DNA of 64,000 nt from a virus. The notes under the pieces are model-generated. The model was not told where the DNA came from and searched no databases. It was given only the letters and a program-made list of their open reading frames with translations. Positions 45,787-54,236 of the stretch are shown here, piece by piece. The stretch covers positions 96,001-160,000 of the IMG/VR virus record IMGVR_UViG_3300032229_000533; one strand, 5' to 3'. Position 1 is the first letter of the stretch. Each line of letters begins with the position of its first letter. Position numbers and translations under genes: made by a program.

Positions 45787-45858
45787 CACGGATGGAGAAT
45801 TACGATATCCCGACACCTAGTTTTGGAGACTAGTGCTCTGCCCCTGAGCTACATCCGT
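45787..45858 (-). tRNA. tRNA-Trp(CCA), atypical T-loop
   Basis: CTAGT-CTCCAAA-ACTAG arm; T-loop ATCGTAA. Confidence 0.8.
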
Positions 45859-46813: not shown

Positions 46814-46913
46814 TAGTCAGGACAGGATTCGAACCTGTAATGGTATTATACATTCCCATTTCCCCTATGATTGGGAGTGCCAATGGTTTATAAGCCAATT
46901 CCACCACCTGACT
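46814..46913 (-). tRNA. aberrant type-II tRNA-like RNA 1 (no assignable anticodon)
   Basis: Perfect AGTCAGG/CCTGACT acceptor, A73, canonical T-arm ACAGG-TTCGAAT-CCTGT; 22-nt D-loop and 13-nt anticodon-position loop. Confidence 0.7.
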
Positions 46914-48334: not shown

Positions 48335-48371
48335 AAAAAACCCCAAACTTTTTTTCAAAGTTCGGGGTTTT
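48335..48371 (-). terminator. intrinsic terminator (attenuator 1)
   Basis: CCCCGAACTT/AAGTTTGGGG stem followed by TTTTTTGTTTTT. Confidence 0.85.
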
Positions 48372-48422
48372 AATATCTTGTTATTTCTAACTTGTTATTA
48401 ACGTACTACCTTATATCCGAAC

Positions 48423-48506
48423 TCAATTTTGCATATGACGATACCAGCTACAGAATACCTCTTGTTGCTTAATAACCGACGACATATGTTTAATTGATGT
48501 TCTCAT
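48423..48506 (-). CDS. 27-aa putative leader peptide 1
   Basis: MRTSIKHMSSVIKQQEVFCSWYRHMQN*; stop codon overlaps candidate antiterminator strand GAGTTCGG (48417-48424). Confidence 0.6.
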   Translation of the reverse strand: MRTSIKHMSSVIKQQEVFCSWYRHMQN

Positions 48507-48569
48507 TGTTTTATAATTATTACAATAATACGAAAAGTTTCGTATTTGTCAAATATTTTTTTGTTTTAG

Positions 48570-48642
48570 TACCCCAAGAGGGATTCGAACCCTCAAAAAC
48601 TTGTTCCTAAGACAAGCGTGTATACCGTTCCACCATCGGGGT
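48570..48642 (-). tRNA. tRNA-Leu(TAG), short variable loop
   Basis: CTTGT-CTTAGGA-ACAAG arm; 5-nt variable region; A73. Confidence 0.85.
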
Positions 48643-48648
48643 GTTCAT

Positions 48649-48736
48649 CACATCGTACAGGCATTCTACTCCCAGCTCCGAGGAATTGTATCTAACTTAG
48701 CCCTTCTCCACCGCTGTATGGGTACCTGAGGATATG
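48649..48736 (-). ncRNA. unclassified rod-like structured RNA (module F)
   Basis: Nested CATATC/GATGTG, CAGGTA/TGCCTG and CAGC/GCTG helices. Confidence 0.45.
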
Positions 48737-48742
48737 ATTTTG

Positions 48743-48816
48743 TATCCCCGATTGGATTCGAACCAATGACCCACAGCTTAGAAGGCTGTTGCTCTATCCA
48801 ACTGAGCTACGGAGAC
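48743..48816 (-). tRNA. tRNA-Arg(TCT)
   Basis: ACAGC-CTTCTAA-GCTGT arm. Confidence 0.92.
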
Positions 48817-48825
48817 ATATTTTTG

Positions 48826-48913
48826 TGGTACCGAGAGCGGGACTCGAACCCGCACGAACATTACTGTCCAAGGGATTTTAAGTCCCTCGTGTCTACCTTT
48901 TCACCACCTCGGC
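48826..48913 (-). tRNA. tRNA-Leu(TAA)
   Basis: AGGGA-CTTAAAA-TCCCT arm, long variable arm, CCA encoded. Confidence 0.92.
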
Positions 48914-48961
48914 GTCTTGTTTTGTTGTACAAATATAGGAAATAAAATTGGATACTACAAC

Positions 48962-49681
48962 TTATAGAGAAAAATTTTCTTCAAATAATGTATTTGAATC
49001 ATTTTCTTCTGTGTTGTAAGTGTGTTCTAATTCAACGGTTGAATTGTTGAAATTAAAGATGAATCGTCCGTCAGAACCTTCGTTGATTTCCCAACCACCG
49101 AAATGACTTTCAAGTTGACTATAACACCAATCTTCAATTGAGGCAGGAACTGCATCACTTGTTTCATCAAATGAACTTTCAATATAACCAGAATCTCCAC
49201 CACCATTGTAACTTAGAGTTAGGATACCATCACTTGGAACTTCAACATCTTGCATGTCTTCTTCCATCCACTTATCAAATCTTGATTTATCCTCGTCAGA
49301 ATCATACTCAACTGTATTACCATCACCTCTATCGTAATATGAATAATTGTGAGTTACGGTAAGTTCTTTTCTCTTACAATCAATTTCAATATCAATGTTT
49401 TGATAACTCATTGTATCCATATCAGGAGATTCATATGCACCCTCAGAAATAACATGATTCATTACTTTTTTAAGAATTGGTGTCAATCCGTCAGGTAACT
49501 CTGCTCTATAGTTATTTTCAAAATGTTGTATACGTCTCCAATCAATGTCATCATGTGACAAGTCATATTGGTCTGAATCCAATTCAATACTAATTACTCC
49601 TTCTGTCATACCCAATGACGCAAGATAGTTACAAGTTCTGTTTAAGTATTTTTTTTCGTCTGGGGTTAAAATTTCTGCCAT
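48962..49681 (-). CDS. conserved phage protein (DUF6878-like)
   Basis: YNGGGDSGYI..GGWEINEGSDG motifs; start at 49681. Confidence 0.6.
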   Translation of the reverse strand: MAEILTPDEKKYLNRTCNYLASLGMTEGVISIELDSDQYDLSHDDIDWRRIQHFENNYRAELPDGLTPILKKVMNHVISEGAYESPDMDTMSYQNIDIEIDCKRKELTVTHNYSYYDRGDGNTVEYDSDEDKSRFDKWMEEDMQDVEVPSDGILTLSYNGGGDSGYIESSFDETSDAVPASIEDWCYSQLESHFGGWEINEGSDGRFIFNFNNSTVELEHTYNTEENDSNTLFEENFSL

Positions 49682-49692
49682 ATTAATAAATA

Positions 49693-50040
49693 TCAATCTT
49701 CTATTTTAAGTGTCCTCAACATCCATTGAGGTCGTTTATTTTCTAAAATATTGTTCATCCATTCTTTTGCTGATGGTAAATAATTGTTACAATCTTCTTT
49801 TACGTGTTGTTCTCCAACATAACGAGTGTAAACTATTTTTCCATCACTATTAATGAATTCTGGTCCAAACCTTTTTTCCATTTCAAAAATCCCTTCGCTA
49901 TGATGTCTGAACATTCTATGTAAAGAATCTCCCATCCAACCTTTGGTTTCATCTAACCATTCGTGTAAATGAATATAATCTTCAGGTTTACCACCAAACT
50001 TTTTTGCGGAACTTTTTGCATGTATATTAGGATGTGCCAT
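49693..50040 (-). CDS. conserved phage protein (DUF6915-like)
   Basis: MAHP..HAKSSAKKFGG..DY..H.W.D..HRMFRHHSEG..GEQHVKED. Confidence 0.7.
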   Translation of the reverse strand: MAHPNIHAKSSAKKFGGKPEDYIHLHEWLDETKGWMGDSLHRMFRHHSEGIFEMEKRFGPEFINSDGKIVYTRYVGEQHVKEDCNNYLPSAKEWMNNILENKRPQWMLRTLKIED

Positions 50041-50058
50041 ATTTTATTTATTTATTTG

Positions 50059-50132
50059 TGGAGAAGGAGGGACTCGAACCCGCGACTTCTTGAATGCAAA
50101 TCAAGCGCTCTAGCCAACTGAGCTACATCCCC
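50059..50132 (-). tRNA. tRNA-Ala(TGC)
   Basis: G3.U70, loop TTTGCAT. Confidence 0.92.
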
Positions 50133-50140
50133 AAACACTT

Positions 50141-50257
50141 TTAGTATAAACCATCTGTAATTGATTTATAGATAAGTACAACCATTCCGATTGCCCACGC
50201 ACTTACCGCTAATATAATTACGGTGTCTTTCAGTGTAATTTTCTTTAACAACTTCAT
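50141..50257 (-). CDS. 38-aa single-pass membrane peptide (not in ORF track)
   Basis: MKLLKKITLKDTVIILAVSAWAIGMVVLIYKSITDGLY*; TATCTTTG element upstream. Confidence 0.5.
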   Translation of the reverse strand: MKLLKKITLKDTVIILAVSAWAIGMVVLIYKSITDGLY

Positions 50258-50330
50258 AATGTTTTTTTAATGGTTTTCAAAATAGGTTACAAAGATAAAT
50301 AAAAAGGTTTAATTACCAAAAATATTTTTG

Positions 50331-50404
50331 AGCCTCCTGTCGGATTCGAACCAACGACATTCGCATTACAAGTGCGACGCTCTGGCCAACTGAGCTAAGG
50401 AGGC
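50331..50404 (-). tRNA. tRNA-Thr(TGT)
   Basis: TCGCA-CTTGTAA-TGCGA arm. Confidence 0.92.
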
Positions 50405-50410
50405 GTTTTC

Positions 50411-50490
50411 GGTAAAGAATAGTCACGACCACCTCTGTTTCTCTTTACCTGTTATTCAATCGTGGCACAATGTGGTACGACCCTAACTGA
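50411..50490 (-). ncRNA. unclassified two-hairpin RNA (module E)
   Basis: GGTAAAGA/TCTTTACC and GTCGT/ACGAT stems with loop-loop complementarity ACCAC/GTGGT. Confidence 0.45.
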
Positions 50491-50496
50491 ATCTTG

Positions 50497-50570
50497 CGGT
50501 TCGGACGGGACTCGAACCCGCGACCTCCTGCGTGACAGGCAGGCATTCTAACCAGCTGAACTACCGAACC
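50497..50570 (-). tRNA. tRNA-Asp(GTC)
   Basis: CCTGC-CTGTCAC-GCAGG arm. Confidence 0.93.
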
Positions 50571-50574
50571 AAAA

Positions 50575-50780
50575 TTCCCCACCTGAGATTCCAGTGAGTG
50601 GATTTTTCTTCTGTTTTCCTATTGAAAACACGAGACGGTCTTACCCGCACATAAACGTCAAACATACTCGGTGGGTTTGTTACGCCCAGGCTCCGACGAA
50701 CCCCCTCTCTAAAGTCGTGGAAGGCTACAACTATACCATTATTAAGAAACGGTACCAAATCTATTGGGTATCTCTTACCC
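50575..50780 (-). ncRNA. unclassified structured RNA (module D)
   Basis: GC-rich 200-nt spacer with GGGTA/TACCC, CGAC/GTCG, GTTTT/AAAAC and CCAC/GTGG helices. Confidence 0.5.
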
Positions 50781-50784
50781 CTTG

Positions 50785-50857
50785 AGCGGTAGACAGGTCT
50801 CGAACCTGCGACTTCGTACTTGGAAGGAACGCGCTCTACCAACTGAGCTACTACCGC
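50785..50857 (-). tRNA. tRNA-Gly(TCC)
   Basis: Loop CTTCCAA, U73. Confidence 0.9.
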
Positions 50858-51387
50858 ATTATTAAATTGTCATGTATTTCAAAATGACAATTTGAACAAA
50901 CTAACATACACTTATCAACTTCATTTTTTAAGTTTTCAAAACTAAGACTTTTTCCTGATATCTGAAAATCTTTTTCTTTTGGGGTTTTATGATGAAATTG
51001 TAATGCTCTATCACATTTATTATACCCACATATTTCACATTTTCCACCCTTATATTCTATCAATTCACGTTTTTTTCTTTTTCTCCACGATATTACATTT
51101 TCTGAATTTGTTTTAGGAATTTTATCTCTTGTAATAACGTATTTTTTAACTGTTTCAAATGCATGTCCCTTAAGTTTTGCAACTTTTTTCAAAGAACCAA
51201 TTTCATCATACAAAACTTGTAACTCTTTCTTTTCCTCGTCACTCAAAGACACATCCTCACCTCCAAGTTTATGTAAGTTACAATGATAAGATACAGTTGA
51301 CATAGCACAATTCAATTCGTTACAAATTTCTTTATACGTTTTACCTGATTTTCTTAATTCTATAATTTTTTCGGAGTATCTACCCAT
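50851..51387 (-). CDS. HTH-HNH endonuclease (homing-like)
   Basis: N-terminal HTH; GGKCEICGY..ALQFHH..VCSNCHFEIH; stop codon lies inside tRNA-Gly. Confidence 0.82.
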   Translation of the reverse strand: MGRYSEKIIELRKSGKTYKEICNELNCAMSTVSYHCNLHKLGGEDVSLSDEEKKELQVLYDEIGSLKKVAKLKGHAFETVKKYVITRDKIPKTNSENVISWRKRKKRELIEYKGGKCEICGYNKCDRALQFHHKTPKEKDFQISGKSLSFENLKNEVDKCMLVCSNCHFEIHDNLIMR

Positions 51388-51432
51388 AATTAATATTTTA
51401 ATTAATAAATATTAGACACTTCGTAAAAAATG

Positions 51433-51516
51433 CTGGTACGGTAGGATTCGAACCTACGATGTGGTCACCCAGTCAGGTTAACAGCCTGATGCTCTCGGCC
51501 TCTAAGCGACGTACCA
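51433..51516 (-). tRNA. tRNA-Asn(GTT) with long variable arm
   Basis: TCAGG-CTGTTAA-CCTGA arm; 15-nt variable region containing TGG-GTGA-CCA; G73. Confidence 0.85.
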
Positions 51517-51522
51517 ATTATG

Positions 51523-51595
51523 TAGAGTAGACAGGGGTCGAACCTGCACGCACTTGCTCCCAAAGCAAGGGACCTACCAATTGGTCAACTACTCT
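51523..51595 (-). tRNA. tRNA-Pro(TGG)
   Basis: CTTGC-TTTGGGA-GCAAG arm. Confidence 0.9.
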
Positions 51596-51609
51596 ATTTT
51601 ATTTCCCAC

Positions 51610-51621
51610 ATGTCAAAGAAC
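51610..51621 (-). promoter_or_regulatory. boxA-like antitermination element
   Basis: GTTCTTTGACAT upstream of the first tRNA of the unit. Confidence 0.65.
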
Positions 51622-51625
51622 ACTA

Positions 51626-51633
51626 CAAATATA
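51626..51633 (-). promoter_or_regulatory. Bacteroidetes-type -7 promoter element (TATATTTG)
   Basis: Matches TAnnTTTG. Confidence 0.65.
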
Positions 51634-51649
51634 CAAAAGAAAACCTTTA

Positions 51650-51688
51650 AAAACAAAAAACCCCGAACTTTTTATGTTCAGGGTTTTT
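51650..51688 (-). terminator. intrinsic terminator (attenuator 2)
   Basis: CCCTGAAC/GTTCGGGG stem followed by TTTTTTGTTTTT. Confidence 0.85.
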
Positions 51689-51712
51689 AAATTTTGGCTT
51701 CTTAGTATTCCA

Positions 51713-51802
51713 TTATTTAAAGTCTGAACATGAGCATAGAGTGCCTAACCCGTCATTTGTCGGTGTTAAATTCGCTCTATCAAGTGTGTTCAAATTTTTC
51801 AT
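51713..51802 (-). CDS. 29-aa putative leader peptide 2
   Basis: MKNLNTLDRANLTPTNDGLGTLCSCSDFK*; late motif TATTTATA at 51811-51818; contains ATGTTCAG complementary to the terminator 5' arm. Confidence 0.6.
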   Translation of the reverse strand: MKNLNTLDRANLTPTNDGLGTLCSCSDFK

Positions 51803-51844
51803 AATGTTTCTATAAATATAGTCAAAAATTTAAAAAATCAACCC

Positions 51845-52105
51845 CTACAGGTATTTTTTGAATAAATCTTCCAAAGTTTTTTCATCTTCTTGTGAAAGAC
51901 GGTAATATTTTTCTTTCAATAGGTCCATTTTCTCAATGAAAACTCCCTCTAAAACTCCAATGTTTTTTTCAGTATCTTCTACTGCGGATGGACTAATATG
52001 TCCTCCCTCAATTAGAGCTTCAATAAGTTCTTTAATGTCTCGTTTGTTACATGCTGATACAAACTCATCGGCATCAACGTCTACGTATGTGTCAAATTCT
52101 GGCAT
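51845..52105 (-). CDS. hypothetical protein
   Basis: Start MPEFDTY at 52105 downstream of TATATTTG. Confidence 0.6.
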   Translation of the reverse strand: MPEFDTYVDVDADEFVSACNKRDIKELIEALIEGGHISPSAVEDTEKNIGVLEGVFIEKMDLLKEKYYRLSQEDEKTLEDLFKKYL

Positions 52106-53849: not shown

Positions 53850-54236
53850 CTAACTTGCCAACTCCTGATTTAACTTTTTTTCCAAACCTGAAATAATATA
53901 TGATGCCGTCATGTAGTTGGTTGCAAGTGGTGTGTTATATACATTACAAATCCTTAACAACATATTCACATCAACTTGGTGGGGATGAACCTCCAATGGG
54001 TCAATAAAGAACACAACCCCTGAGATTTCACCATCGGCAATCATTGATGCAATTTGGGCGTCACCACCAAGTGGTCCTGACTTCATACATTCAACATCCA
54101 ATCCCGCGTGTTCAATATGTTTTCCTGTGGTACCTGTCGCAATAACCTCAACCCTTTTGAAAAAATCCAACCTTTTCATAACAAAGGCAACCATGTCAGC
54201 CTTCTTTCCATCGTGAGCAATAACAGCAATTTTCAT
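53850..54236 (-). CDS. mgsA: methylglyoxal synthase
   Basis: IAVIAHDGKK, ATGTTG, SGPLGGDAQI, DPLEVHPHQVDV, LATN. Confidence 0.93.
   Translation of the reverse strand: MKIAVIAHDGKKADMVAFVMKRLDFFKRVEVIATGTTGKHIEHAGLDVECMKSGPLGGDAQIASMIADGEISGVVFFIDPLEVHPHQVDVNMLLRICNVYNTPLATNYMTASYIISGLEKKLNQELAS

Follow-up and report, generated by a model that had tools for sequence, protein, structure and literature searches.

Large phages often carry many tRNA genes, and how the output of these genes is matched to demand is largely unexplained. In the phage sequence studied here, a short open reading frame, a candidate antiterminator and an intrinsic terminator lie directly ahead of an array of such genes. 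What does this arrangement sense, and does it govern the tRNA genes behind it? We consider it fairly probable that it acts as a ribosome-mediated leader-peptide attenuator, whose most likely signal is the supply of the tRNAs under its own control.

Genomic setting and comparative set

The window (the whole stretch of DNA analysed, 64,000 nt) comprises bases 96001-160000 of one 182,339-bp contig (G+C 32.6%). Encoded proteins include a T4-like major head protein, a portal and a large terminase, and the sequence therefore derives from a large tailed phage. ARAGORN detected 24 tRNAs between window positions 43.6 and 54.6 kb, every one on the minus strand, to which Rfam added a tRNA-Trp (45858-45787, anticodon CCA). 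The pattern TTTG-N18-20-TAnnTTTG, which we take to be the sigma-A promoter consensus of Bacteroides and Flavobacterium, occurs 15 times in the window versus 3.3 expected copies, which points to a Bacteroidota host.

A phage GenBank collection yielded no DNA or protein match, either for the region or for a 700-aa neighbour; the comparative set was drawn from IMG/VR viral contigs. Relatives were found via the upstream 86-aa gene, a 17-nt leader pattern, the DUF6915 gene residing within the tRNA unit (80 of ~600 loci kept) and a terminator pattern, and nhmmer together with direct parsing gave ~24 distinct leader variants and 17 distinct combinations of antiterminator and terminator strands. The order of the array is conserved in these relatives, running Pro, Asn, (Asp), Gly, Thr, Ala and then Leu, Arg, Leu, after which come a second leader and terminator, followed by Val or Glu, Phe and the rest. 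Four loci of the DUF6915 set (L056, L068, L074, L075), in which a protein gene directly precedes the Pro array, have no attenuator, and the element is therefore clade-specific.

Organization of the cassette

The initial annotation had described, in this order, a leader ORF, an antiterminator, a terminator, a host-type promoter, a boxA-like box and tRNAs. All of these elements were recovered where it had placed them, and their order is real (coordinates below are those of the window, and all features lie on the minus strand). The cassette opens with the motif TATTTATA (51818-51811), which is located 8 nt ahead of the leader's ATG and is a candidate promoter element of the phage. The leader ORF covers 29 codons (51802-51716), from the ATG at 51802-51800 to a TAA stop at 51715-51713. 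Between the stop codon and the terminator lies a GCCAAA box (51693..51698), which is kept in nearly all variants amid variable flanks. The intrinsic terminator (51649..51688) consists of an A tract, an 8-bp G+C stem, a 7-nt loop and a T tract extending to 51649, with arms that the terminator scan places at 51683-51676 and 51668-51661. A bidirectional terminator serving a plus-strand gene was ruled out, as no converging plus-strand gene ends there.

Downstream of the terminator, the host-type promoter, the boxA-like box, tRNA-Pro and tRNA-Asn are likewise present by sequence. The Bacteroidota-type promoter (TTTG, 20 nt, TATATTTG; 51657-51626) has the form TTTG-N20-TAnnTTTG and overlaps the T tract, and the boxA-like 12-mer TCTTTGACATGT (51619-51608) lies 12 nt before tRNA-Pro (51595-51522), the first tRNA of the unit, with tRNA-Asn (51516-51432) being the second. 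The presumed regulated unit (48569..51595) reaches up to the next leader and terminator and contains tRNA-Pro, Asn, an HNH gene, Gly, Asp, Thr, Ala, the DUF6915 and DUF6878 genes, Leu-UAA, Arg-UCU and Leu-UAG. Since the terminator scan shows no minus-strand terminator between 51656 and 48371, we count nine tRNAs in this unit, with the anticodons Pro(UGG), Asn(GUU), Gly(UCC), Asp(GUC), Thr(UGU), Ala(UGC), Leu(UAA), Arg(UCU) and Leu(UAG).

Antiterminator pairing and terminator structure

A perfect 8-nt complementarity between the end of the leader and the terminator had been at the heart of the initial annotation, and it was confirmed. The antiterminator 5' strand ATGTTCAG (region 2; 51731-51724) begins with the final base of codon 24, continues through codons 25-26 and finishes with the opening base of codon 27. 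Its exact reverse complement is CTGAACAT (region 3; 51681-51674), which the antiterminator and the terminator have in common and which takes 6 nt from the terminator's 5' arm and 2 nt from its loop. When the upstream 111 nt were shuffled 100,000 times, 0.47% of the shuffles gave a perfect 8-nt complement to a stretch that includes 5 nt or more of the terminator's 5' arm. Besides, the 191-nt region folds far better than its shuffled versions (z = -5.96).

As the proposed antiterminator demands, the pairing is conserved among relatives, with compensatory changes across the 17 distinct strand combinations. Hardly any variation is seen in the 6-nt core (GTTCAG with CTGAAC). The information resides in the next two pairs beyond it, whose 3' bases belong to the loop and stay unpaired when the terminator forms; the terminator itself is therefore no explanation for their covariation. 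Pairing was scored in A2, a re-alignment from an anchor 8 nt before the core (the MAFFT alignment, A1, had region 2 shifted by one column in two rows), and strand pairs were also tallied directly, outside the alignment. In A2, 95.5% of cells are paired (shuffled mean 87.5%), 11 cells are changed on both sides (shuffled mean 4.2) and the covariation score amounts to 0.193 (shuffled mean 0.071), with 0 of 500 shuffles reaching the observed value for any of the three measures, and sliding the partner strand by 1-3 columns lowers pairing to 7%-46%. The direct tally of the 17 combinations finds the first flanking pair as T-A in 6, A-T in 5, G-C in 2 and mismatched in 4, and the second as A-T in 9, G-C in 3 and mismatched in 5. 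In one lineage, a core pair went from G-C to A-T, the same change being tolerated in the terminator as G.U; three pairs between regions 2 and 3 carry compensatory changes. Cognate strands form paired runs of 7.75 nt on average versus 6.45 nt for swapped strands, and runs of at least 8 nt are found in 62% of the former versus 17% of the latter.

RNAalifold, run on the full alignment A1, returned the terminator as the only consensus structure, with all 10 of its pairs kept, and its result did not include a conserved, covarying helix between a region 1 and region 2. For the window sequence, the MFE fold of the leader pairs a region 1 candidate (TTTGAACA; 51787..51794) with 51731-51724, a tentative pairing that could form in the untranslated leader, and in leader-only MFE folds the antiterminator core is paired at 4-6 of its 6 positions in every variant. 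Across variants, folding energies range from -11 to -14.6 kcal/mol for the terminator and from -8 to -14 kcal/mol for the antiterminator duplex.

The antiterminator strand also falls within a ribosome footprint of the stop, as had been annotated. In the window and its group of 29-codon leaders, 8 nt separate the strand from the stop codon, and a terminating ribosome would therefore cover it. The stop lies even closer to the strand, or overlaps it, in L024, L043, L021 and L067; in a clade whose leaders end in SEASGW it follows region 2 by 14 nt, and masking by a terminating ribosome is borderline there. We regard the attenuator itself as well supported.

Proposed mechanism

Given conserved parts, a frame that stays open, covarying regions 2 and 3 and the match in composition described below, we infer a scheme in which the start site, translation of the leader, stalling, ribosome-polymerase coupling and the direction of the response would combine as follows. 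Transcripts starting at or upstream of the TATTTATA motif would carry the 29-codon frame. If the frame is not translated, region 2 would be held in a leader hairpin and the terminator would form; if a ribosome reaches the stop codon, region 2 would be covered and the terminator would form again. When a cognate charged tRNA is scarce, the ribosome would stall at any of codons 2-20 and leave region 2 free. Region 2 could then pair with region 3, no terminator would form, and the polymerase would continue into the Pro-Asn-Gly-Asp-Thr-Ala-Leu-Arg-Leu unit. Codons 3-22 are drawn from the amino acids of the nine tRNAs, and the loop would therefore amount to negative feedback on tRNA supply. The host-type promoter past the terminator may provide a baseline level in this phage, and the attenuator may be the sole gate in some relatives. 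A shortage of charged tRNA that stems from amino-acid starvation would give the same signal, and extra tRNA would be no cure for it.

Leader codons and the downstream tRNA set

Codons 3-22 encode solely Asn, Leu, Thr, Asp, Arg, Ala, Pro and Gly, each at least once, and these eight amino acids match exactly those of the nine tRNAs that precede the next terminator. Codons are present for each of the eight amino acids and for each of the nine anticodons, including both Leu isoacceptors as well as AGA for Arg-UCU, and 17 of 20 codons can be decoded through Watson-Crick or G:U wobble pairing. Lys at position 2 and the tail supply the residues that do not belong to the set; the last seven residues, at which a stall would mask region 2, are mostly foreign to it. 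We delimited a sensing zone (codons 2-20; 51743..51799), i.e. the A-site positions at which a stalled ribosome would not yet have reached the antiterminator strand, its boundary being deduced from a ribosome front edge of ~13 nt. Within this zone, 18 of 19 residues belong to the unit's set against a background of 0.47 (binomial P=1.4e-5, an approximate value as the zone was defined after the pattern had been seen), which no other of the genome's 641 small ORFs reaches (runner-up, 15).

The same tendency is seen in the relatives, where 18 distinct leaders have 281 of 348 zone residues within the set of their own unit, and Ser, Cys, Trp and Tyr occur not once in these 348 residues. When in-set positions are replaced, 42 of 49 replacements stay in the set versus 41.5% expected (p=2e-10, the expectation referring to random single-base non-synonymous changes and some columns being imperfectly aligned). 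The mirror between leader and array is in effect one evolutionary observation per leader family, though one that has been maintained through divergence.

An independent sibling cassette of the same layout (48552-48337) precedes the Val-Glu-Phe...Met unit of the same genome. Its leader of 27 codons, whose antiterminator strand overlaps the stop codon, is followed by the same type of terminator, a promoter and the boxA-like 12-mer. As many as 22 of 23 residues of the sibling zone fall within the set of the unit behind that leader (Val, Glu, Phe, His, Ser, Ile, Lys, Cys, Trp, Tyr, Gln, Arg and Met), and no other small ORF of the genome also represents every one of the 13. The two leaders are nearly disjoint in composition, the sibling being complementary and matching its own unit. 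Part order, terminator tail, boxA-like 12-mer and the position of the antiterminator strand at the stop codon are shared between the cassettes, whereas the sibling differs in leader sequence, promoter type (TTGACA/TATTAT-like), amino-acid set and the overlap of the strand with the stop codon itself.

Matched losses of tRNA genes and codons form a further, albeit partial, line of comparison. Both tRNA-Pro and the Pro codon are absent from L021; in L067, tRNA-Thr and tRNA-Arg are missing together with Thr and Arg codons; L069, unlike its relative L045, has lost tRNA-Asp, tRNA-Ala and both codons; and tRNA-Ala and the Ala codon are jointly absent from L055 and L141, from L121 and L136, and from L132. 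On the other hand, Ala codons persist without tRNA-Ala in L030, L031, L024, L021, L126 and L144, Asp codons persist in L032 despite loss of the matching tRNA, L050 has tRNA-Ala and no Ala codon, and the decayed arrays of L040 and L042 are still preceded by the ancestral leader. The resulting presence/absence table (120, 5, 12, 7) gives a Fisher odds ratio of 14 (p=1.2e-4) with shared ancestry ignored, and we treat the match as suggestive only.

These patterns bear on the strongest rival explanation, according to which the attenuator senses overall translation speed or ribosome availability (e.g. upon host shut-off or stress) and the match in composition is inherited chance. Its switch anatomy would be identical to that of our best explanation, and both the sampling of eight amino acids instead of a run of one and the frequent loss of a tRNA without loss of its codons would suit a general sensor well. 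However, such a sensor requires neither a zone nearly free of 12 amino acids, with the four residues named above missing from the 348 zone residues, nor replacements that remain in the set, nor a second leader whose complementary set matches its own unit, and we consider it unlikely. Judging from the codons, the attenuator probably senses its own tRNAs. As to the phage group as a whole, we lean, if only slightly, towards closed-loop supply control, with one leader per array, at least one codon per tRNA and any shortage opening the whole array. Possible sources of shortage in such a loop include codon-usage mismatch, host shut-off and a host anticodon nuclease.

Leader reading frame and its C-terminus

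Among 19 distinct leaders, the reading frame is devoid of stops, versus 72 and 49 in frames 1 and 2, and an ATG ORF of 23-34 codons is retained in ~24 variants, the ATG being invariant. At the sequence level, the leader frame is thus under selection. The encoded peptide is a different matter. No Pfam match was obtained for its 29 amino acids, and its end varies: in the window's clade the leader finishes with Cys-Ser-Cys-Ser-Asp-Phe-Lys, while a 2-nt insertion before the antiterminator strand (L024 and L043) or a 1-nt insertion (L021) causes the same strand nucleotides to be read in other frames that run into new nearby stop codons. In another clade, the frame is six codons longer and ends in SEASGW, whose codons differ between relatives mostly by synonymous changes. 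Changes by codon position amount to 12/16/37 in five near-identical 32-codon leaders, the third position being highest, and are flat in the window's clade (90/81/86), where peptide identity does not appear to be what is conserved.

Because three clades read the strand in different frames, the Cys-Ser codons arise as a side effect of the RNA strand. The initial annotation had laid emphasis on these codons and on cysteine limitation. This part did not hold up: the residues vary with the frame between clades while the nucleotides stay, and a stall at these positions would mask the antiterminator. The emphasis is thus probably wrong, and cysteine sensing was rejected on the same two grounds. We also discarded a RiPP-like precursor, i.e. 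a Cys/Ser/Thr-rich peptide, given the unconserved C-terminus and flanking ORFs (~49.0-54.5 kb) that have no Pfam match to a modifying enzyme.

Could the frame be incidental altogether? A translation-independent RNA switch, set by a protein, a small molecule, uncharged tRNA or polymerase speed, would draw support from the fact that covariation proves RNA pairing only, from the conserved GCCAAA box and from the missing third-position excess in the window's clade. Yet the frame is open in 19/19 variants behind an invariant ATG, a new stop is always close by after frame shifts, RNAalifold shows no conserved aptamer-like structure and no Rfam family, T-box included, matches the leader at E<=1, all of which makes this explanation quite improbable.

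Promoters and the boxA-like box

The TATTTAT core of the TATTTATA motif, the putative late promoter of the initial annotation, is invariant in 20 leader homologs. Genome-wide, 44 of 111 TATTTAT copies (40%) precede the ATG of an ORF (at least 60 aa) by 3-25 nt, versus 4.9% for permuted motifs, and copies are placed ahead of the portal gene as well as several large ORFs within the head/portal/terminase block. It is a genuine phage motif that keeps close to genes. It often stands just 4-6 nt from the ATG; if it were a -10-like element, this spacing would imply leaderless or near-leaderless mRNAs.

The downstream Bacteroidota-type promoter is kept in close relatives with changed nn bases and is absent in L051-type relatives. 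In the latter (L051, L053, L059 and L062), tRNA-Pro begins 6 nt past the T tract with no promoter in between, and read-through is therefore the sole route into the array. In the present phage, a promoter directly follows the terminator, and the attenuator is therefore not the sole input. The previously suggested combination of early basal expression and conditional late read-through is plausible for the window's clade. The boxA-like 12-mer, which we take to resemble a GTTCTTTGA-type boxA, has two exact copies in the window, both before the first tRNA of a unit; in sequence and in placement ahead of untranslated RNA genes, it fits a putative boxA/Nus site.

The least probable explanation, if by a small distance, sees in the cassette an ordinary gene for a small protein, or a small dual-function RNA, that has a promoter and a terminator to itself and whose product would act in trans while the tRNA unit is transcribed separately. 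The succession of promoter-like motif, ORF, strong terminator and a separate host-type tRNA promoter in this phage would suit it, and trans-acting terminated attenuator RNAs and leader peptides are known from Sinorhizobium (PMC6614838, PMC7298713), but the peptide is poorly conserved and has no Pfam match, the frame of its C-terminus differs from clade to clade, the end of the ORF is tied to the terminator loop by covariation, and in L051-type relatives the terminator must be passed to reach a tRNA starting 6 nt past its T tract.

Relation to known systems and implications

Of the elements that characterize leader-peptide attenuators, an open ORF, an intervening terminator, a covarying antiterminator and product-related codons can be recognized in the sequence. 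With the trpL, hisL, leuL, pheL, thrL and ilvGMEDA leaders of Proteobacteria, the cassette shares a short frame, a terminator and an alternative pairing at the end of the frame. In both cases the position of a ribosome would pick the structure and the regulatory codons are related to the operon product, and the multivalent thrL and ilvGMEDA leaders also sample several amino acids. Unlike these amino-acid operon leaders, the cassette would regulate tRNAs instead of enzymes and samples eight amino acids (nine anticodons) through 20 codons that form no runs. It further differs in residing in a phage with Bacteroidota-type promoters, in having a second promoter and a boxA-like box past the terminator, in lacking a conserved 1:2 helix in our analysis and in having no sequence or Rfam relationship to them: the Rfam models of the Trp, His, Leu and Thr leaders went unmatched, and Rfam listed only tRNAs and weak chance matches elsewhere in the region.

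Closer in purpose are the pheST attenuator and the hisS leader peptides (PMC2965389), in which leader-peptide attenuation likewise controls the translation apparatus with charged tRNA as the signal. These leaders control synthetases and sense one amino acid, whereas the product here is a tRNA set. T-box riboswitches are similar in that tRNA status sets the choice between terminator and antiterminator upstream of translation-supply genes. They bind uncharged tRNA directly by means of a specifier loop and the T-box sequence, with no need for an ORF, whereas the ORF is conserved here; regarding T-box features (specifier loop, stem I platform and antiterminator sequence), Rfam gave no match at E<=1 over 51600-51850. 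With rrn-type boxA/Nus antitermination, finally, the locus has in common a boxA-like sequence just before untranslated RNA genes. That system acts on the polymerase rather than sensing translation, and the boxA-like candidate of the present locus is separate from the attenuator and downstream of it.

Leader-peptide attenuation of tRNA genes was not found in the full-text literature searched, an absence that is no proof of novelty. If true, ours would be the first such case, with a leader that amounts to an itemised checklist of its operon's products. Demand-driven control would be achieved in a simple way if a leader reported on the availability of just those tRNAs whose genes lie behind its gate, and ribosome-mediated attenuation would then extend from enzymes to decoding RNAs, in a phage with Bacteroidota-type promoters. 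This raises the questions of whether phage tRNAs are induced when host tRNAs are depleted, e.g. by anticodon nucleases, whether recoding the leader would shift its specificity, and whether the leader might serve as a natural, programmable multi-tRNA sensor. The ~24 natural variants, with or without a downstream promoter, provide natural controls.

Natural variation of the attenuator among relatives

In four of the IMG/VR loci that carry related tRNA arrays (L056, L068, L074 and L075), a protein gene is directly followed by tRNA-Pro, with a promoter-like box only. Since neither a leader nor a terminator precedes tRNA-Pro at these loci, the attenuator is, judging from their arrangement, clade-specific. 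One clade (L051, L053, L059 and L062) possesses a host-type -7-like box (TAATATTG) 5' of the leader and lacks the second promoter, with tRNA-Pro beginning 6 nt downstream of the terminator T tract (e.g. L051:2314-2475). The resulting order of promoter, leader, terminator and genes is the classical one.

As for the close relatives L040 and L042 (IMGVR_UViG_3300043469_001323 and 3300044641_007002), the units of both are devoid of the Thr, Ala and both Leu tRNA genes, and that of L040 additionally of Asn. Despite these losses the leader is almost unaltered, and the tRNA array appears, from these two genomes, to decay faster than the leader. Besides, a GCCAAA box between leader stop and terminator (window 51693-51698, minus strand) is retained in nearly all leader variants of the initial alignment and its re-aligned version (A1, A2), while its flanks are variable.

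A sibling cassette and its tRNA unit

The sibling cassette (window 48337-48552, minus strand), located ahead of the Val-Glu-Phe...Met tRNA unit, comprises a sigma-70-like promoter, a 27-codon leader, a terminator, a host-type promoter and a boxA-like 12-mer, with terminator tail and 12-mer being the same as those of the main attenuator. The stop of the 27-codon leader overlaps the antiterminator strand, and the amino-acid composition of this leader mirrors the downstream unit. A tRNA-Trp with anticodon CCA (window 45787-45858, minus strand), matched by Rfam with 47 bits yet not called by ARAGORN, has an odd T arm and occupies the slot held by Trp(cca) in relatives. With this tRNA, the Trp codon of the second leader is matched as well. 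A further, weak tRNA-like match of 100 nt (window 46814-46913, minus strand; 30.5 bits, slightly over the gathering score), for which ARAGORN made no call, could represent a tRNA that carries an intron or has decayed.

The TATTTAT motif across the genome

Throughout the genome, TATTTAT lies 4-21 nt 5' of ~44 ORF starts (e.g. window 23650, 21757, 20297, 19164, 63253 and 61722), frequently at a spacing of just 4-6 nt. Were it to function as a -10-like element, leaderless mRNAs would be numerous. In reverse complement, it corresponds to the core sequence of the late motif of T4, TATAAATA.

Genes within and beside the tRNA region

In this phage only, tRNA-Asn and tRNA-Gly have an HTH + HNH endonuclease gene between them (window 50851-51387, minus strand). 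Given that ~80 nt separate the two tRNAs in the relative L029, the gene looks like a recent homing-endonuclease insertion within the regulated unit. Adjoining the tRNA region is a gene for a 128-aa protein with a methylglyoxal synthase-like (MGS-like) domain (window 53850-54236, minus strand), which is uncommon among phage genes.
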